Assembly (NCBI RefSeq): GCF_004345675.1
Contig: NZ_SLWU01000018.1
Location: 28,345-52,344 of the forward strand
Direction of reading: 5' to 3'
DNA length: 24,000 bases
Source: Caldanaerobacter subterraneus
GTDB taxonomy: Bacteria; Bacillota; Thermoanaerobacteria; Thermoanaerobacterales; Thermoanaerobacteraceae
Part shown: one piece after another, positions 2,315 through 21,376 of the stretch
Layout: every line of letters starts with the position of its first letter
How positions within the stretch are numbered: position 1 is the first letter of the stretch
Made by a program: the position numbers and the translations under genes
Notes under the pieces: model-generated
Database searches by the model: none
What the model saw: only the letters and a program-made list of their open reading frames with translations
Told to the model about the DNA's origin: nothing

Positions 2315-3394
2315 ATGAGTAACAATGAAGAATTAGCAAGAGAAGCCATTAATGAACTTATAAATAAAGGGAAAAAAACCGGAATGCTCACTTACAATGA
2401 AATAATGGACTCCCTTGAGGATATAGATTTAAATCCTGACCAAATCGAAAAAGTATATGACACTTTTGAAGATATGGGAATAGAAATAGTAGGAGATGAA
2501 CCCCGACAGGAAGAAATATCAGAAGAGGACCTCAATTTGGACGACCTCTCTCTTCCTGAGGGAGTCAGCATAGATGACCCTGTGAGGATGTACCTCAAAG
2601 AAATCGGCAAGATACCTCTACTCACTCCAGAAGAAGAAATTGAATTGGCAAAAAGAATAGAGCAGGGAGATGAAGAAGCGAAAAAGCGCCTGATAGAAGC
2701 TAATTTGAGGTTGGTGGTAAGCATTGCAAAAAGGTACGTAGGGCGTGGCATGCTCTTTTTAGACTTGATACAAGAGGGTAATCTCGGGCTTTTGAAGGCC
2801 GTAGAAAAATTTGACTACAGAAAAGGGTATAAATTCAGCACCTATGCTACATGGTGGATCAGACAGGCTATAACTAGAGCTATAGCTGATCAAGCTAGGA
2901 CGATAAGAATTCCTGTGCACATGGTAGAAACTATAAACAAATTGATAAGGGTGCAAAGGCAATTGCTCCAGGAATTAGGCCGTGAACCTACCCCTGAAGA
3001 ATTGGCAAAAGAAATGGGAATGCCTGAAGAAAAAGTCAGAGAAATTCTCAAAATAGCTCAAGAACCAGTTTCTCTTGAGACTCCTATAGGTGAAGAGGAA
3101 GACAGTCACTTGGGAGATTTCATACCTGATGAAGATGCTCCGGCTCCTGCAGAAGCTGCAGCTTACACCATGCTGAAAGAGCAACTCATGGATGTTTTAG
3201 ATACGCTGACTCCTAGGGAGGAGAAGGTATTGCGGTTAAGGTTTGGACTTGACGATGGACGAGCTAGAACTCTTGAAGAAGTTGGCAAAGAATTTAACGT
3301 CACAAGAGAGAGAATAAGGCAGATTGAAGCAAAAGCTTTGAGAAAATTGAGGCATCCTTCAAGGTCCAAAAAATTAAAAGATTTTCTCGATTGA
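2315..3394 (+). CDS. sigA: primary RNA polymerase sigma factor (sigma-70/SigA)
   Basis: Region 2 ([27 protein letters not shown]) and region 4.2 ([30 protein letters not shown]) are recognisable. Start ATG 2315 follows GGGAGGGG at 2301-2308. dnaG-sigA synteny supports the call. Confidence 0.95.
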
Positions 3395-3404
3395 TGATGG
3401 CTTC

Positions 3405-3432
3405 TTGACAATCTCGCAAAAATCATTATAAT
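3405..3432 (+). promoter_or_regulatory. sigma-A type promoter for the tRNA-Asn/tRNA(CAU) pair
   Basis: -35 TTGACA at 3405-3410, a 16-bp spacer, and -10 TATAAT at 3427-3432, about 15 nt upstream of the tRNA. Confidence 0.7.
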
Positions 3433-3446
3433 TAATATTAGCGTAT

Positions 3447-3521
3447 TCCTCAGTAGCTCAAGGGTAGAGCAGCCGGCTGTTAACCGGCAGGTTGTAGGTT
3501 CGAATCCTACCTGAGGAGCCA
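3447..3521 (+). tRNA. tRNA-Asn (anticodon GTT), CCA encoded
   Basis: Cloverleaf read by hand. Acceptor TCCTCAG/CTGAGGA, anticodon arm GCCGG-CTGTTAA-CCGGC, T-loop GGTTCGAATCC. Confidence 0.93.
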
Positions 3522-3527
3522 CTTTTT

Positions 3528-3603
3528 GGGCCTTTAGCTCAGCTGGCAGAGCGGTCGGCTCATAACCGATTGGTCCGGGGTTCGAATCCCTGAAGGCCCA
3601 CCA
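3528..3603 (+). tRNA. tRNA with anticodon CAT (Met by sequence; probably the lysidine-modified tRNA-Ile2)
   Basis: Acceptor GGGCCTT/AAGGCCC and anticodon loop CTCATAA. It lacks initiator features (no 1:72 mismatch, no GGG/CCC anticodon stem). The variable loop TTGGTC and overall sequence resemble known tRNA-Ile2(CAU) genes from memory. Confidence 0.85.
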
Positions 3604-3617
3604 TCTCGATAAAAAAA

Positions 3618-3650
3618 GCATTTGAGGTTGTCAAATGCTTTTTATTTTTT
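3618..3650 (+). terminator. rho-independent terminator after the tRNA pair
   Basis: Stem GCATTTGA (3618-3625) / TCAAATGC (3631-3638), loop GGTTG, then TTTTTATTTTTTT. An A-run upstream makes it potentially bidirectional. Confidence 0.8.
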
Positions 3651-3666
3651 TGTTTTGGAGGATTGT

Positions 3667-4371
3667 ATGAGACTTCCAGAGCGTCTAAAAGCTATCACTA
3701 AATACATTCCGCCAGAGGTAAGAGTAGCTGATATTGGCACTGACCATGGGTTTATACCCATTTATCTTGTTGAGAATAAAATTGCTAAATACGTTATAGC
3801 AACTGATTTAAATTGCGGTTCCCTTCAGAAGGCGATTGACAATATAAAAAATAAAAACTTAGAGATGTTTATAGAGACCAGATTAGGGGACGGATTAAAG
3901 GTGCTCACACCTGGAGAGGTGGAAGTTGCGATTATTGCAGGTATGGGTGGGCTTTTGATAATAAAAATCCTCACAGAAGGGAAAGAGATAGCACAAACTA
4001 TAAAAAAATTCATTTTTCAGCCAATGAGGGATGCTGATAAATTAAGGAGATATCTAGTTCAGAACGGCTATAAAATTTCTGAGGAAGATTTAGTAAAAGA
4101 AAGAGGCAAGTTTTATGAGATTATAATAGCAGAACATGGTAGACAAAAGATTGAAAATGACGTATATTACGAAATAGGGCCAAAACTCGTAGAAAAAAAT
4201 CATCCCCTTCTTAAAGAGTTTTTGCTTTACAAGATACAAAAAATTCGAAGGATTTTGAATAAAATTCCACCTGGAGATCCAAAGAGAAAAGGCTTAGAAG
4301 AGAAAATAAAAAAGCTTGAGGTGTTGGGCGATGGCAGTGAAATGCCAAACAATAGTTTCTATAATGGATAG
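3667..4371 (+). CDS. trmK: tRNA (adenine22-N1)-methyltransferase TrmK (YqfN family)
   Basis: The N-terminus MRLPERLKAITKYIPPEVRVADIGTDHGFIPIYL is the TrmK family signature, and the length is about 234 aa. Start ATG 3667 follows GGAGG at 3656-3660. It lies upstream of a NIF3 gene, as in Bacillus (yqfN-yqfO). Confidence 0.85.
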   Translation: MRLPERLKAITKYIPPEVRVADIGTDHGFIPIYLVENKIAKYVIATDLNCGSLQKAIDNIKNKNLEMFIETRLGDGLKVLTPGEVEVAIIAGMGGLLIIKILTEGKEIAQTIKKFIFQPMRDADKLRRYLVQNGYKISEEDLVKERGKFYEIIIAEHGRQKIENDVYYEIGPKLVEKNHPLLKEFLLYKIQKIRRILNKIPPGDPKRKGLEEKIKKLEVLGDGSEMPNNSFYNG

Positions 4372-5446
4372 GCTTGCGCCGCGCAAATTTGCCCAGGATT
4401 GGGACAATGTGGGGTTAATTGTAGGAGACCCTTTACAGGATGTTTCGAAGATACTAGTAGCACTTGATGCCACTCATGAAGTTGTTGAAGAAGCTATAGA
4501 GAAAAAAGTAGATATGATTGTGACTCATCATCCGCTGATTTTTAAGTCTATAAAATCTGTCAGATCCGATACGCCAGTCGGCATGCTTGTCATGAAACTT
4601 ATCAAACATGAGATTTCCCTTTATGCAGCTCATACTTCTTTTGATATAGCACCAAATGGCATGAATGACATCTTGTGCAATATATTGGGGATTTACGAAA
4701 GAGAAGTTCTAGATGTCACATATTCAGAAGATTATAAAAAAGTCGTTGTGTACGTGCCCAAGGGATATGAAGATGTAGTGCGGAATGCCATGTGCAGCGC
4801 AGGAGCAGGTTTTATAGGAAATTACAGCGATTCCACTTTTCAGGTAGAAGGCACAGGCACTTTCAAACCTATGGAGGGAGCCGACCCATTTATTGGGGAA
4901 GTAGGGAAGTTAGAAAAGGTAGAAGAAATAAGACTGGAAACAGTAGTTCCACAAAAATATTTGGATAAAGTGATAAACGCCATGCTAAGAGTCCATCCCT
5001 ATGAAGAAGTTGCTTATGACGTTTATTCACTGGCAAATCTCAGGGAAGAGTACGGACTTGGAAGAATAGGAGTCATTGAAGAGACGACTTTGAAAGAATT
5101 AGCCTTAAAGGTCAAAGCAAAGCTTAAAGCTGAATCTCTCAAGGTGGTTGGCGATTTAGAAAGAAGAGTTAAAAAAGTTGCTGTATGCGGTGGAAGTGGT
5201 GCAAGCCTAATTCATAAGGCTGTTATGAAAGGAGCGGATGTTTTAATAACTGCCGATATAGGCTATCACGATGCGGTAGAAGCCCAGCACCTCGGTTTAG
5301 CTTTGATTGATGCTGGCCATTTTGCCACAGAAAACATAGCAGTGAGGTTTATCGCAGAATACTTGATTGATGAAACTCAAAAACAAGGGCATGAAATAGA
5401 GGTCTTTGTAAGTGAAGTTCAAAAAGACCCTTTTACATGCCTTTAA
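4331..5446 (+). CDS. NIF3-family protein (GTP cyclohydrolase 1 type 2 homologue, YqfO-like)
   Basis: NIF3 motifs are present (AQDWDNVGLIVGD, VTHHPLIF, DAGHFATE) with an inserted PII-like middle domain, about 371 aa. Start ATG 4331 follows GAGGTG at 4318-4323 and overlaps the end of trmK by 41 nt. Confidence 0.88.
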   Translation: MAVKCQTIVSIMDRLAPRKFAQDWDNVGLIVGDPLQDVSKILVALDATHEVVEEAIEKKVDMIVTHHPLIFKSIKSVRSDTPVGMLVMKLIKHEISLYAAHTSFDIAPNGMNDILCNILGIYEREVLDVTYSEDYKKVVVYVPKGYEDVVRNAMCSAGAGFIGNYSDSTFQVEGTGTFKPMEGADPFIGEVGKLEKVEEIRLETVVPQKYLDKVINAMLRVHPYEEVAYDVYSLANLREEYGLGRIGVIEETTLKELALKVKAKLKAESLKVVGDLERRVKKVAVCGGSGASLIHKAVMKGADVLITADIGYHDAVEAQHLGLALIDAGHFATENIAVRFIAEYLIDETQKQGHEIEVFVSEVQKDPFTCL

Positions 5447-5514: not shown

Positions 5515-5875
5515 GCATGTGAGTAAGTCGGATGGCCGCGGGCGAGGCATTTGCCTCGCACGAGGAAAGTCCGAGCTCCACAGGGCAGGGTGCCGGGTAA
5601 CACCCGGTGGAGGCGACTCCAAGGAAAGTGCCACAGAAATGTAGACCGCCTGACGCTTTCAAAGGCGTCGGGTAAGGGTGCAACGGTGCGGTAAGAGCGC
5701 ACCAGCAGCCGGGCGACCGGCTGGCTAGGTAAACCCCACCCGGAGCAAGGCAAATAGGAGGGAGTAGGTGGCCCGCCATTTCCCTCGGGTTAAGCCGCTA
5801 GAGGTATCAGGCAACTGATACCCTAGATAGATGGCCATCTAAAACAGAACTCGGCTTACGGACTTGCTCACATGC
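5515..5875 (+). ncRNA. rnpB: RNase P RNA (bacterial type A-like)
   Basis: Universal motifs GAGGAAAGTCCGAGCTCCA (5563-5581) and ACAGAACTCGGCTTA (5844-5858) are present. The P1 helix pairs GCATGTGAGTAAGTC (5515-) with GACTTGCTCACATGC (-5875). This is a GC-rich island in AT-rich DNA. Confidence 0.93.
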
Positions 5876-5890
5876 TGAAAAATTCTGCTT

Positions 5891-5912
5891 TCCCGGGGAC
5901 GGGATTTTTTAT
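5891..5912 (+). terminator. rho-independent terminator after rnpB
   Basis: Stem TCCCG/CGGGA with loop GGGA, followed by TTTTTTATTT. Confidence 0.7.
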
Positions 5913-5985
5913 TTGCCACTATTTTGCCAGCACAAAAATTGTGAATAGTTTGTTAAAGGGGTTTTTGTCGTTTTTTACTTTTTGT

Positions 5986-6014
5986 TTGATTTAAAAACGT
6001 TTTTTTGTTAATAT
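5986..6014 (+). promoter_or_regulatory. candidate promoter for deoD
   Basis: -35 TTGATT at 5986-5991, a 17-bp spacer, and extended -10 TGtTAATAT at 6006-6014. Confidence 0.5.
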
Positions 6015-6049: not shown

Positions 6050-6748
6050 ATGAGCATACATATTGGAGCAAAAGAAGGAGACATTGCCGAAACAGTACTG
6101 CTTCCGGGAGACCCATTGAGGGCTAAATATATAGCAGAAAATTTACTGGAAGATGCAAAGTGCTACAATGAAGTCAGAGGTATGTACGGCTTCACCGGAT
6201 ATTACAAGGGGAAAAGAGTGTCAGTGCAAGGAACAGGAATGGGGGTGCCTTCTATATCCATTTATGTGAATGAACTTATAACAAGTTACGGCGTGAAAAA
6301 CTTGATAAGAATAGGTACATGCGGTTCATTACAGCCAGACATAAAGATAAGAGATATTGTGATTGCTATGAGCGCCTCAACTGACTCTGCTATAAATAAA
6401 ATACGTTTTAATGGAATGGATTACGCTCCTACGGCAAGTTTTAAGCTTTTGAAAAAAGCCTATGACAAGGCTGTTGAAATGGGGATAGAGCCAAAAGTTG
6501 GAAATATACTTACTACAGATACTTTCTACCATGACGACCCAGAGAGCTGGAGGCTTTGGGCAAAATTTGGAGTGTTGGCTGTAGAAATGGAGACAGCGGG
6601 GCTTTACACTTTGGCTGCCAAGTATGGGGTTGATGCTCTTACTATACTTACTGTAAGCGACAGTTTGGTTACAGGTGAAGCGACCTCAGCTGAGGAGAGG
6701 CAGAAAACTTTCATGGACATGGTTAAGATTGCTCTGGAGATTGCATAG
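6050..6748 (+). CDS. deoD: purine nucleoside phosphorylase, DeoD type
   Basis: [30 protein letters not shown]...[15 protein letters not shown]...VEMETAGLY is a DeoD-family sequence of about 232 aa. Start ATG 6050 follows GAGAGGAGG at 6035-6043. Confidence 0.93.
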
Positions 6749-8622: not shown

Positions 8623-8699
8623 GGGGTCATAGCTCAGCTGGTTAGAGCGCTACGTTGACATCGTAGAGGCCACAGGTTCAAGTCCTGTTGACCCCACCA
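8623..8699 (+). tRNA. tRNA-Val (anticodon GAC), CCA encoded
   Basis: Acceptor GGGGTCA/TGACCCC, anticodon arm CTACG-TTGACAT-CGTAG, T-loop GGTTCAAGTCC. Confidence 0.93.
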
Positions 8700-8894: not shown

Positions 8895-8928
8895 ATTTTA
8901 AGGCGTGATATTAAAATTGGAGGTGGGA

Positions 8929-9798
8929 GTGGGGTTGAAAAATCTAAATGGAAAGTGGGGATTGGACTCATCTAAAGAGTTTTACTGGGAGCCAGATGTG
9001 GAAGGAGGCTATAGAGTTTACAAAGTAAAGTCTGTTATTATGGAACATCAGTCACCGTATCAGAAGATAGACATTGTAGAACTTGAAACTTGGGGAAAGA
9101 GTTTATTTTTAGACGGCAGCCTTCAGTCAACAGAATCAGATGAATTTATATACCATGAACTTTTGGTGCATCCAGCTATGCGTGTTCACCCTTCTCCTAA
9201 GAGAGTTTTGATATGCGGGGTAGGAGAGGGGAAGAGCGTAAGAGAAGTTTTAAAATACCCGACAGTAAAAGAGGTAATAGGTGTTGATATAGATAAAGAA
9301 GTAGTTGCCCTCTGTCAGAAACACTTGGGTAAAACACCTATTGATGACAAGCGTGTGAGACTTGTATATCAAGATGTAGCAGAATTTATAAAAAATTATA
9401 GAGGCGAACCCTTTGATGTAGCTATAGTAGATGTAACAGATGATTTAGATGGGCCTGCTAGGAGTGTTCACCAGTTAGACTTTTATAAAAGGCTTTATGA
9501 AATTTTAGGCGAAAAAGCTACTGTGGTAGTGCAGGGGACATCAGCTTTTTCGAAAGTTAAAAATGTCGGCTTTTGCCACATCTATGAGATTCTCAAAGAA
9601 GTATTTCCTTTTGTAATTCCCTATGCCGATTACATCCCCTCTTTTAGCGATTTGTGGACTTTTTTTGTGGCTCTGAAAGGAATTAAAGACTTAACCCCAA
9701 GGCATGAAATCCCCCGTGACCTTAAGTATTACGATGAATATACAAATGAAAGGATTTTTACTCTAGCTAAGCCTTTGAGAGAAAAACTAGGGGTATGA
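8929..9798 (+). CDS. speE: polyamine aminopropyltransferase (spermidine synthase family)
   Basis: SPYQKIDIVE...LFLDGSLQSTESDEFIYHELLVHP...GVGEGKSVREVLKYPTVKEVIGVDID are SpeE motifs. The start is uncertain: GTG 8929 lies 5 nt after GGAGG at 8919-8923, with alternatives TTG 8935 and the ORF-track GTG 8905. Confidence 0.85.
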   Translation: MGLKNLNGKWGLDSSKEFYWEPDVEGGYRVYKVKSVIMEHQSPYQKIDIVELETWGKSLFLDGSLQSTESDEFIYHELLVHPAMRVHPSPKRVLICGVGEGKSVREVLKYPTVKEVIGVDIDKEVVALCQKHLGKTPIDDKRVRLVYQDVAEFIKNYRGEPFDVAIVDVTDDLDGPARSVHQLDFYKRLYEILGEKATVVVQGTSAFSKVKNVGFCHIYEILKEVFPFVIPYADYIPSFSDLWTFFVALKGIKDLTPRHEIPRDLKYYDEYTNERIFTLAKPLREKLGV

Positions 9799-9809
9799 TA
9801 GTACCCCTT
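9788..9809 (+). repeat. direct repeat copy 1 (speE stop codon plus hairpin, no T-run)
   Basis: TAGGGGTATGATAGTACCCCTT is identical to 10061-10082. It has an internal stem AGGGGTA/TACCCCT and contains the speE stop TGA at 9796-9798. Confidence 0.9.
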
Positions 9810-10060
9810 CAGACTGTTGACAAAATAAAGAAGTGGCATTTTGTGTGTAAATGCGACTTGTTGTCAAAGCGGTAACTAAACTTGGCGAACTTGAGGAGCG
9901 AAGGCGGGGCGAGCAAAGCGAGCGGCCACCTGAGCCTGAAAGGCGAATTGGCCGGTACCCCGCCTGAGCCCGAAAAGTGAGCCTTAGTTTAGTCGCTTTG
10001 CAACTCTGGAGCATTAACACAAAATGCCACTTAAATAAGAAAGACTTTGTCAACAAACTG
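9810..10060 (+). mobile_element. 251-bp non-coding palindromic element with a GC-rich core (MITE-like / structured RNA candidate)
   Basis: Nested inverted repeats run the full length: 9810-9824 with 10046-10060 (13/15), 9831-9846 with 10017-10032 (16/16), and 9865-9881 with 9987-10000. The element is flanked by 22-bp perfect direct repeats. There is no credible ORF. Confidence 0.55.
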
Positions 10061-10087
10061 TAGGGGTATGATAGTACCCCTTTTTAA
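10061..10087 (+). terminator. direct repeat copy 2, the functional-looking rho-independent terminator
   Basis: It has the same 22-nt hairpin as 9788-9809, but here it is followed by TTTTTAATTT. Confidence 0.8.
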
Positions 10088-10212
10088 TTTAAGAAATTGC
10101 AAGATTAGATGAAACTTTGACGAAAGGTTATACTTAGTTTTTTATACATAAAATTTTCACTTCTTGCAAAATATATAACCGAATCACAAAAGTGAGGAGG
10201 TTATGCCTTTTT

Positions 10213-11298
10213 ATGAAGAGAAAAAATCTCATAATGACAATTTTGGTAATTTTTATAGTGGTCAGTTTGATTTTTTTAAATGGATGCAAGAGTGGGACAC
10301 AAAAACAGTTTTTTAAGCCTTTTGCTGGGGTTAAGGGTAAGAAATTGCAAGTTGTGGGATTTTACATGGATTCTCAAGGGTATGACAATTCTTATCAGTC
10401 TCTAGTGAGATATTCCAAATACATAGATACGCTTTCACCGCTTTGGCTAACAGTTGAGGGAGATGGGACAGTAAAGGACTCTACTAATCCGCAGGCCTTA
10501 AACTACGCCAAAAAACAGGGTATAAAAGTAGTTCCCCTGGTGAATGTTGCCAATAGCAAGGATGAAGTGCTTTTAGACCCCAATATTCGCGACAAAGTCA
10601 TCTCTCAATTGGTAGTTCTTCTAAAAAAGCACGATTTTGACGGGTACAACATAGACTTTGAGTTCATACCTCATGGAGAAAAGAATTATGTAAAGGACAA
10701 GGATTATCTGACGGCCTTTGTGGCTAAGTTAAAGCCTCTTGTCAAAAAAGAAGGAAAAATATTGGACATATCAGTTATACCTCACTATCAAGTGCCAAAA
10801 GAAATATCCGGAATATACGATTATAGAGAACTAGCGCATTTGGTGGACCACGTTACATTGATGACTTATGACAGGCATAATGCTTCTACTCCTCCTGGTC
10901 CTGTTTCACCGGAACAGTGGGTAGAGTATAATGTAAAGGATGCCCTCAATGAAGGGTTTAAGCCTGAGCAGATATGCCTTGGGGTTGCTACTTATGGCTA
11001 TGACTGGCCTGCAAGCAAAAGCGGAGGTTTCTCAAGGCCTACCAAAGAAATCATGACAAAGGCAAAACTTCAGGGGATTGAGATAAAATGGAGTGATAAG
11101 TACCAAGAACCCTACTATACTTACTATGACAAAATAACCGGTACCACAAGGGAGGTTTGGTTTGAGAATTCATATACATTGGCAGAAAAAATAGAAGTGG
11201 CAAAAAGGTATAATCTCCATGGAATATGTGTGTGGAGGATTGGTTTTGAAACCCCCTCTTTCTGGAAAGTAATTGACCAGAAAATAGGTGCGCGGTAA
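10213..11298 (+). CDS. glycoside hydrolase family 18 lipoprotein (YaaH/YdhD-like peptidoglycan or chitin hydrolase)
   Basis: A signal peptide with lipobox LNGC is present, along with the GH18 catalytic motif FDGYNIDFE (DxxDxDxE). Start ATG 10213 lies downstream of GAGGAGG at 10194-10200. Confidence 0.8.
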   Translation: MKRKNLIMTILVIFIVVSLIFLNGCKSGTQKQFFKPFAGVKGKKLQVVGFYMDSQGYDNSYQSLVRYSKYIDTLSPLWLTVEGDGTVKDSTNPQALNYAKKQGIKVVPLVNVANSKDEVLLDPNIRDKVISQLVVLLKKHDFDGYNIDFEFIPHGEKNYVKDKDYLTAFVAKLKPLVKKEGKILDISVIPHYQVPKEISGIYDYRELAHLVDHVTLMTYDRHNASTPPGPVSPEQWVEYNVKDALNEGFKPEQICLGVATYGYDWPASKSGGFSRPTKEIMTKAKLQGIEIKWSDKYQEPYYTYYDKITGTTREVWFENSYTLAEKIEVAKRYNLHGICVWRIGFETPSFWKVIDQKIGAR

Positions 11299-12815: not shown

Positions 12816-12892
12816 GGGGTCATAGCTCAGCTGGTCAGAGCGCTGCGCTCACATCGCAGAGGTCACAGGTTCGACTCCTGTTGACCCCACCA
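12816..12892 (+). tRNA. tRNA-Val (anticodon CAC), CCA encoded
   Basis: The acceptor (GGGGTCA/TGACCCC) is the same as in tRNA-Val(GAC). Anticodon arm CTGCG-CTCACAT-CGCAG. Confidence 0.93.
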
Positions 12893-20352: not shown

Positions 20353-20428
20353 GGTCGTGTAGCTCAGCTGGGAGAGCACCTGCCTTACAAGCAGGGGGTC
20401 ATAGGTTCAAGTCCTATCGCGACCACCA
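20353..20428 (+). tRNA. tRNA-Val (anticodon TAC)
   Basis: Anticodon arm CCTGC-CTTACAA-GCAGG, T-loop GGTTCAAGTCC, CCA encoded. Confidence 0.92.
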
Positions 20429-20429
20429 T

Positions 20430-20506
20430 GGCCCAGTAGCTCAGCTGGTTAGAGCGCCAGCCTGTCACGCTGGAGGCCGAGGGTTCAAGTCCCTTCTGGG
20501 TCGCCA
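20430..20506 (+). tRNA. tRNA-Asp (anticodon GTC)
   Basis: Anticodon arm CCAGC-CTGTCAC-GCTGG, CCA encoded. Confidence 0.92.
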
Positions 20507-20510
20507 TCCT

Positions 20511-20586
20511 GCCCCGATAGCTCAGTAGGTAGAGCAAGGGACTGAAAATCCCTGTGTCAGTGGTTCGATTCCACTTCGGGGCACCA
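20511..20586 (+). tRNA. tRNA-Phe (anticodon GAA)
   Basis: Acceptor GCCCCGA/TCGGGGC, anticodon arm AGGGA-CTGAAAA-TCCCT, CCA encoded. Confidence 0.92.
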
Positions 20587-20591
20587 TCCAA

Positions 20592-20667
20592 GCGGGCATA
20601 GCTCAGTTGGCAGAGCATCACCTTGCCAAGGTGAGGGTCGCGAGTTCGAGTCTCGTTGCCCGCTCCA
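20592..20667 (+). tRNA. tRNA-Gly (anticodon GCC)
   Basis: Acceptor GCGGGCA/TGCCCGC, anticodon arm TCACC-TTGCCAA-GGTGA, CCA encoded. Confidence 0.92.
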
Positions 20668-20670
20668 TAA

Positions 20671-20745
20671 GGCGACATAGCCAAGCGGTAAGGCAGGGGT
20701 CTGCAAAACCCCGATTCCCCGGTTCGAATCCGGGTGTCGCCTCCA
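20671..20745 (+). tRNA. tRNA-Cys (anticodon GCA)
   Basis: Acceptor GGCGACA/TGTCGCC, anticodon arm GGGGT-CTGCAAA-ACCCC, CCA encoded. Confidence 0.92.
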
Positions 20746-21195: not shown

Positions 21196-21228
21196 TAAAA
21201 ATAAAGCTGTAATTGAAAAATTAAATAC

Positions 21229-21376
21229 TCAAGTGCTAGGGGAGCCAGAAATGGCTGAGAGGGGATTCGTTCCCGACCCTTAGAACTTGACCAGGGTAAT
21301 GCCTGCGAAGGGAAGCACGTTTTATTGAGTCTGTAAAAAGTGCTCACCTGAACAGGTGGGCTCATTTTATTATTTT
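21229..21376 (+). promoter_or_regulatory. TPP (THI-box) riboswitch with terminator expression platform
   Basis: The aptamer spans about 21229-21320: P1 AGTGCT...AGCACGT, then GGCTGAGAGG and ACCCTTAGAACTTGACCAGGGTAATGCCTGCGAAGGGAAGC. The terminator stem GCTCACCT/AGGTGGGC (21341-21360) is followed by a T-rich tract running into the SD. Confidence 0.9.

Follow-up and report, generated by a model that had tools for sequence, protein, structure and literature searches.

A miniature inverted-repeat element with IS1182-family ends in a duplicated speE terminator hairpin of Caldanaerobacter subterraneus

Insertion sequences (ISs) of the IS1182 family are listed in the ISfinder tables with direct repeats of 0-60 bp. 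Two representatives from staphylococci, IS1272 and TnSha1, insert in both orientations into stem-loops of 22-30 bp that are often confirmed terminators, and no primary-sequence specificity is seen in these targets (PMC4923244, PMC5678879). Siguier et al. 2015, as cited in both of these papers, noted that some members of the family target palindromes. For another member, ISPse1, a duplication of 4 bp is listed (PMC3281130). Here an element of 251 bp is described that lies behind the spermidine synthase gene speE in a 24,000-nucleotide stretch of Caldanaerobacter subterraneus DNA (contig NZ_SLWU01000018.1, positions 28,345 to 52,344; hereafter the window). It is very probably a MITE (miniature inverted-repeat transposable element) that has the ends of an IS1182-family IS and is moved in trans by the DDE transposase of that IS into hairpin targets, duplicating the whole hairpin. 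The partner IS shares with IS1272 and TnSha1 both the transposase family and the use of terminator hairpins as targets. The staphylococcal elements delete the hairpin partly or wholly and make no target duplication, whereas the entire hairpin is duplicated here, and the element behind speE is, unlike them, a 251-bp non-autonomous derivative. Duplication of a whole stem-loop corresponds to pathway b in Fig. 13 of PMC5678879, where it is drawn as a possibility. Hairpin targeting in the IS1182 family is therefore already published; what seems new here is a MITE that combines hairpin targeting with duplication of the whole hairpin.

Classical bacterial MITEs make short duplications of fixed length, and we know of neither a classical MITE described as duplicating a whole terminator hairpin nor an IS inserting into repetitive extragenic palindromes (REPs) described as duplicating a whole palindrome. 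Correia, RUP, ERIC, Chunjie and QMITE resemble the element described here in being small, multi-copy and intergenic, with terminal inverted repeats (TIRs) and the capacity to form one long stem-loop, and the reviews of bacterial MITEs list none with whole-hairpin duplication (PMC10969869, PMC3184786). SPRITE, the rho-independent terminator-like element of pneumococci, is likewise a small repeat with terminator-like hairpins near gene ends (PMC10969869, PMC3184786), but it carries its own terminator-like motif, whereas the hairpins here are host terminators copied by insertion. REP-inserting ISs (for example ISPpu9, IS110 family) also have an extragenic palindrome as target (PMC1525189, PMC12288879); they recognize one repeated sequence family and have other transposase types. 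Unusually long duplications are shared with the IS1202 subgroup, where they measure 27-28 bp and fixed per subgroup (5-6, 16-17 or 27-28 bp; bioRxiv 10.1101/2022.12.17.520857). Hairpin targeting is not reported for IS1202 and its transposase is related to IS481/IS3, in contrast to the continuous range of 18-29 bp found here, which goes with hairpin size, and to the IS1182 transposase of the partner. A literature search, which lay outside ISfinder itself, returned no MITE tied to the IS1182 family and no terminator-targeting MITE with long duplications. The MITE thus seems undescribed, and the IS may already have a name.

Two exact copies of the 22-bp sequence TAGGGGTATGATAGTACCCCTT, and no more, are present in the window (9788-9809 and 10061-10082; 273 bp from start to start), and two such matches were reproduced in none of 100 shuffles. 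These copies bracket the element, and the features of the locus are as follows.

8905-9798, plus strand: speE open reading frame (ORF; spermidine synthase), with a Pfam Spermine_synth match and homologues named spermidine synthase
9788-9809, plus strand: left copy of the target-site duplication, the speE terminator hairpin with stem AGGGGTAT/GTACCCCT, now parted from its T-run
9810-10060, no strand assigned: the 251-bp MITE proper, a long imperfect palindrome, missing from the relative on contig L001 and 87-96% identical to eight other complete copies
9810-9827, plus strand: MITE left terminus CAGACTGTTGACAAAATA, identical at 18/18 positions to the left inverted repeat (IRL) of the full-length IS (IS 1-18 = MITE 1-18)
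9831-9846, plus strand: left arm of the subterminal repeat, AAGTGGCATTTTGTGT, conserved across the MITE family and not in the IS
9880-9990, no strand assigned: GC-rich core with a G+C content of 61% (whole window 39%), missing from a short form of about 104 bp
10017-10032, plus strand: right arm of the subterminal repeat, ACACAAAATGCCACTT, a 16/16 complement of 9831-9846
10045-10060, plus strand: MITE right terminus CTTTGTCAACAAACTG, identical at 16/16 positions to the right inverted repeat (IRR) of the IS (IS 1544-1559 = MITE 236-251)
10061-10085, plus strand: right copy of the duplication (10061-10082), which leads into TTTTT (10081-10085), the T-run of the original site; this stretch is what survives as the intrinsic terminator of speE

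The start of speE is placed at 8929 in database gene calls (289 amino acids). Its last three codons and the TGA stop lie within the hairpin at 9788-9809, with the TGA (ORF end 9798) in the loop. A terminator-like site on the plus strand was called only at the second of the two repeat copies. The TIRs proper, CAGACTGTTGACAAA and CAGTTTGTTGACAAA (9810-9824 and 10046-10060), match at 13 of 15 positions and are conserved across copies, and the inner arms of the palindrome pair with a 3-nucleotide indel. In the window, the left side is taken by the arm type in which the IRL-like terminus is usually found, and the right side by the type that usually has the IRR-like one. An earlier note on this DNA had described the two perfect repeat copies and their spacing, the T-run behind the second copy only, and the long palindrome with its outer, subterminal and inner arms; all of these were found where it had placed them. 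The whole 308-nucleotide stretch was predicted to fold at -145 kcal/mol (z = -13.7 against shuffles), with a similar value for the opposite strand. The sole ORF of the MITE is an 89-amino-acid frame on the minus strand, which indels of 1-2 nucleotides between copies would break. No match in blastn was obtained for the MITE against plasmid and phage collections. Palindromic elements derived from IS200/IS605, and REPs, which have subterminal hairpins and neither TIRs nor duplications, were considered and set aside, given that the MITE has both TIRs and a target duplication.

The empty form of the insertion site was found in a metagenome-assembled genome (MAG) of Caldanaerobacter sp., whose contig L001 carries a speE homologue (85% identity) in the same gene order as the window. 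A single hairpin (3854-3875) is followed there directly by the sequence that stands behind the second hairpin copy of the window, with 97 bp identical. Because L001 has one hairpin and the same downstream sequence, the window carries an insertion of 273 bp, made up of the 251-bp element and a 22-bp duplication. At 99.9% identity the window matches C. subterraneus subsp. tengcongensis MB4 (AE008691.1) as well as two further assemblies, and the insertion is present in all of them. Three draft C. subterraneus assemblies break at or inside the MITE, as repeats cause such breaks.

Two further observations concern the sequence next to this site. The intergenic stretch between the hairpin and the downstream GH18 gene, 10083-10157 in the window and 3876-3950 in L001, is 100% identical, whereas the flanking DNA, which is mostly coding, is just about 80-85% identical between the two. 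The stretch holds a promoter-like TTGACG...TATACT, recognizable in L002 as well, and may be a conserved promoter or leader. In this third relative, L002 (speE 88% identical), the terminator hairpin and about 38 bp after it are absent at 1985-2000, and speE ends in LGM and the stop codon, passing straight into the conserved downstream region.

Copies of the MITE were surveyed by scanning species-representative genomes for a bipartite motif of its ends. The copy numbers come from MAGs and not from C. subterraneus itself, and much of the evidence is drawn from metagenome assemblies. The scan returned 66 loci, about 62 of them from the Caldanaerobacter MAG with the empty site and four of them chance matches; the remaining loci came from one Thermoanaerobacter MAG and one Thermoanaerobacteraceae MAG. 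In total 74 element ends were collected, 68 of them in one Caldanaerobacter MAG, and most lay at contig ends. Scans of viral contigs with both end patterns gave only chance matches (L069, L070).

Nearly all MITE ends adjoin short palindromes, each of them different. For the 30 nucleotides beside an end, folding energies at or below -6 kcal/mol were obtained in 82% of cases, compared with 6% for controls taken nearby (Mann-Whitney p = 3e-30). From complete copies and from pairs of contig ends with a common flank, 19 insertions were rebuilt. In every one, the two arm types are each represented once and the flanking direct repeat, of 18-29 bp, is the hairpin of that locus; the duplication lengths span this range without a gap. 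The ends of the duplication, as read from the outputs, fall within 2 nucleotides of the stem feet in 17 of the 19. An A-run or T-run is present on at least one side in 16/19, so most targets look like intrinsic terminators. With the insertions oriented alike, a T-rich tract lies downstream in 12 of 19 and an A-rich tract upstream in 11 of 19, and no bias relative to the T-run is evident. The copies contained in a single contig (L008, L025, L043, L053, L058, L063) occur in both orientations relative to the record strand. The element is thus small and multi-copy, without a transposase gene, bounded by TIRs and by a verified target duplication, and its termini match those of an IS, as is characteristic of a MITE. 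The earlier note had proposed a non-autonomous element that inserted into, or recombined at, the terminator behind speE and duplicated its target. For insertion and non-autonomy that reading holds, the insertion being documented by the empty site on L001. The tests that the note had named, for further copies, for empty sites and for flanking duplications as a general property, are answered by the 68 ends in a single MAG, by L001 and by the 19 insertions, each with its own hairpin duplicated.

A short form of about 104 bp (L037 3756-3859; also L010, L015, L024, L060 and L067) is without the GC-rich core. Hairpin duplications are still present around it, and both these and the termini are more degenerate; the degeneracy of the duplications suggests that the short-form insertions are older. 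This core, which the short form lacks and which is unrelated to the IS, might serve some separate function. Separately, the terminal heptamers CAGACTG and CAGTTTG are swapped between the arms in some copies (L043, L058 and L063 versus the window and L025), and in L063 the spacers adjoining them are swapped too, as if the inverted repeats within one element had recombined and so turned its interior around with respect to the termini. A tandem array of CRISPR-like look with a period of about 66 bp occupies L058 1-1220, about 870 bp upstream of the MITE copy there.

The presumed autonomous partner was reached through an end in L037, from a MAG, that is common with the MITE for its first 18 nucleotides only and then diverges. 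Metagenome contigs were scanned with this variant end, and 20 loci were obtained, four on one contig of 3.02 Mb. That contig was assigned to C. subterraneus on account of its ArgS, which shows 100% identity to named proteins of the species. The full-length IS (for example L090 8249-6691) is 1,559 bp long, with 15-bp terminal repeats, left end CAGACTGTTGACAAAATA, right end CTTTGTCAACAAACTG and one ORF of 504 amino acids; a promoter-like TTGACA-N17-TATTAT motif lies inside the IRL. The ORF scored 496.2 bits against the NCBIfam model NF033551 (IS1182 family transposase; cutoff 270) and matched DUF772, DDE_Tnp_1 and DDE_Tnp_1_6 in Pfam. Its homologues number thousands in Firmicutes, and the named ones, at 60-70% identity, are IS1182 family transposases. 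The transposase model, a single ORF in an element within the 1.3-2 kb size range, the TIRs and the insertion into hairpins all place the IS in this family. Membership of the IS1202 family was ruled out by the variable duplication lengths and by the type of transposase, for which the best ISNCY-type model reached 75 bits against a cutoff of 325. A long-repeat search among the MAG loci for a full-length IS found none, as is expected for a MAG.

The IS behaves at its targets as the MITE does. Its left-end flanks are mostly hairpins, and two complete copies are bracketed by whole-hairpin duplications of 18 bp and 24 bp. For an IS insertion a second empty site was identified in MB4 downstream of argS, where a single hairpin with its T-run is present. 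One copy, in L077, stands at a non-hairpin site and has a duplication of only about 5 bp, a single observation. Two composite structures join the IS and the MITE directly. On the same C. subterraneus contig as the full IS copies, L089 holds at about 5726-6006 (minus strand) a hybrid of about 280 bp in which the IS left end (85% identity over the first approximately 120 bp) is joined to the right arm of the MITE (82% over 79 bp). The IS part comprises the left end, the 5' untranslated region and the first approximately 25 codons of the transposase, and a hairpin duplication of 21 bp, its copies differing by 2 mismatches, brackets the hybrid. In L088 (2708-4574) the order is hairpin X (TGACAGGCATAATACCTGTCT), a diverged MITE (2729-2994; 66.5% identical to that of the window), hairpin Y, a full IS (3015-4553) and hairpin X again. 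As the compound unit is bracketed as a whole by one 21-bp duplication of hairpin X, its arrangement suggests that a MITE end and an IS end may have been used together in one transposition event.

Some further IS-like sequences were noted. An IS1182-family copy on the minus strand of L086 (5600-6081) is broken, about 174 bp in from its left end, by a second element whose protein looks IS21/IstA-like by eye. L071 has two IS left ends, at 6421 and 9847, which are separated by 3,426 bp and have identical 45-bp flanks; at the first, homology to the IS extends over just 642 bp, and the pair could be a tandem duplication or a composite structure. A look-alike of the left end of the IS, promoter included (TTGACAAAATTTCGGGATCC...TATTAT at L025 2796-2833), came out of a degenerate end search and was judged not to be an element end. 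It lies upstream of a gene that is thioesterase-like by eye, has no hairpin flank, and may be what remains of a solo end or be similar by chance.

From the identity of the ends and the co-occurrence of both elements in one species, we infer that this particular transposase mobilizes the MITE; the compound unit of L088, with a single duplication around it, speaks for this indirectly. Several points weigh against this interpretation. What the IS shares with the MITE of the window is limited to the terminal 18 and 16 bp, nothing else being detectable, and the strongly conserved 16-bp subterminal repeat of the MITE is missing from the IS, so the true helper could be a different IS1182 relative that was not sampled. 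A tblastn search with the IS1182 transposase, not extended to other transposase or integrase families, found no homologue in the window. The copy survey gave no C. subterraneus loci although the speE site of MB4 carries the exact pattern, so negatives in that scan do not amount to absence. In some copies (L035, L073) the two flanks are unmatched, which we attribute, without proof, to inter-copy recombination or to chimeric metagenome assembly. Finally, mobility of the MITE, its mobilization in trans and the cruciform step described below are proposals drawn from sequence.

Under the mechanism that we propose, the MITE, having no coding capacity of its own, would be served in trans by an IS1182-family transposase that chooses its targets by shape and not by sequence, namely short palindromes and mostly the hairpins of intrinsic terminators. 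[quoted passage not shown] The two gaps left single-stranded would then be repaired, whereby the whole stem-loop is copied, and each insertion would end up between duplicate copies of the hairpin that it had targeted (22 bp at speE). Recognition of the target as an extruded hairpin or cruciform is favored. In such a structure the stem feet would be adjacent whatever the stem length, so that the length of the duplication would track that of the hairpin, whereas in ordinary duplex DNA attack points so far apart and so variable would be hard to reach for one transposase complex. The duplications of about 5 bp in L077 and of 4 bp listed for ISPse1, each a single observation, fit a short intrinsic stagger across the junction.

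The rival explanations are all much less probable. The long and very stable fold on both strands, and a core of 61% G+C in a thermophile genome of 39% G+C, might be expected of a structured RNA or 3'-untranslated regulatory module that is copied around the genome and for which mobility is secondary. In an alignment of nine long copies with the diverged element of L088, moreover, 16 of 81 predicted pairs still pair through changes on both sides between subfamilies, six of them in the subterminal repeat. This compensatory signal derives nearly all from one divergent sequence, however, and it shows that the symmetry of the arms has been maintained, with which protein binding at both ends, DNA hairpin formation and RNA are equally compatible; such symmetry is equally expected of transposon ends. 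Rfam, in which riboswitches and terminator-targeting group II introns are included, gave no match to the element when the whole window was searched at the gathering threshold, nor when 9600-10300 was searched at E <= 10, where the matches were at chance level and all fell outside 9788-10060. Moreover, the short form keeps its hairpin duplications without the core, and the single-contig copies occur in both orientations. A primary role as RNA is improbable on this evidence. The absence of an Rfam match agrees with the earlier note, which did not recognize the element as a named repeat or RNA family; the IS1182-family ends and the targeting of hairpins, known from that family (PMC4923244, PMC5678879), qualify that statement.

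The earlier note had leaned toward an att-core duplication. On that view this would be a miniature integrative element, with the 22 bp serving a tyrosine or serine recombinase as its att core and repeated as attL and attR. The length and perfection of the duplication are in keeping with this proposal, as is the failure to find an IS1182-type transposase homologue in the window. It is nevertheless very unlikely and was abandoned, since the other copies carry different duplicated sequences of different length (18-29 bp), the element is not associated with any integrase, and the IS with matching termini, which duplicates its targets in the same manner, encodes an IS1182-family DDE transposase, not an integrase. 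Alternatively, the hairpins could be part of the element, which would then measure 293 bp and have 36-bp terminal repeats and terminator-like hairpins of its own, as in SPRITE-type repeats. The arms 9789-9824 and 10046-10081 do form a 36-nucleotide inverted repeat with 81% complementarity, as follows from the palindromic nature of the hairpin. One hairpin is already present at the empty site of L001, however, and the element is constant while the hairpins differ completely between copies, so we regard this as no more probable than an att core. Palindromes are prone to events such as template switching, which would speak for a local rearrangement at the terminator palindrome or an assembly artefact. 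This is the least probable of the four, as three or more independent assemblies of C. subterraneus, the complete genome of MB4 among them, have the same insertion, and the inserted sequence is not locally derived and recurs at dozens of other loci.

Elsewhere in the window the RNA genes found were an RNase P RNA (324 bits), a thiamine pyrophosphate (TPP) riboswitch (79 bits) and nine tRNA genes, five of which form a cluster, at coordinates 5520-5874, 21228-21330, 20353-20742, 3447-3600, 8623-8696 and 12816-12889.

At speE itself, the protein should be unchanged by the insertion. The left hairpin copy has no U-tract, so transcription of speE should pass through the MITE and stop at the right copy, and the transcript should gain a very stable 3' stem-loop of about 270 nucleotides. 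Insertion of the MITE into a terminator should be near-neutral for the host, leaving the coding sequence intact and regenerating a working terminator, and such landings may be a reason for the expansion of the family. In practical terms, the MITE accounts for breaks in Caldanaerobacter assemblies, and a duplicated terminator can flag it to annotators. About 20 hairpin-sized duplications, two empty sites and a matched pair of IS and MITE make up a clean natural dataset, which supports the structure-dependent choice of targets that has been proposed, not demonstrated, for the IS1182 family from staphylococcal IS1272. A broader reading, which we hold only tentatively and with somewhat more doubt than confidence, is that transposases of the IS1182 family capture a cruciform or hairpin in its extruded state and attack across the base of it with an ordinary short stagger, so that the MITE family would be a record of structure-directed transposition. 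If this is true, one enzyme family would give either duplication of the hairpin, as here, or its deletion, as in IS1272, depending on which stem feet are attacked, and the MITE family would also copy terminators around a thermophile genome.

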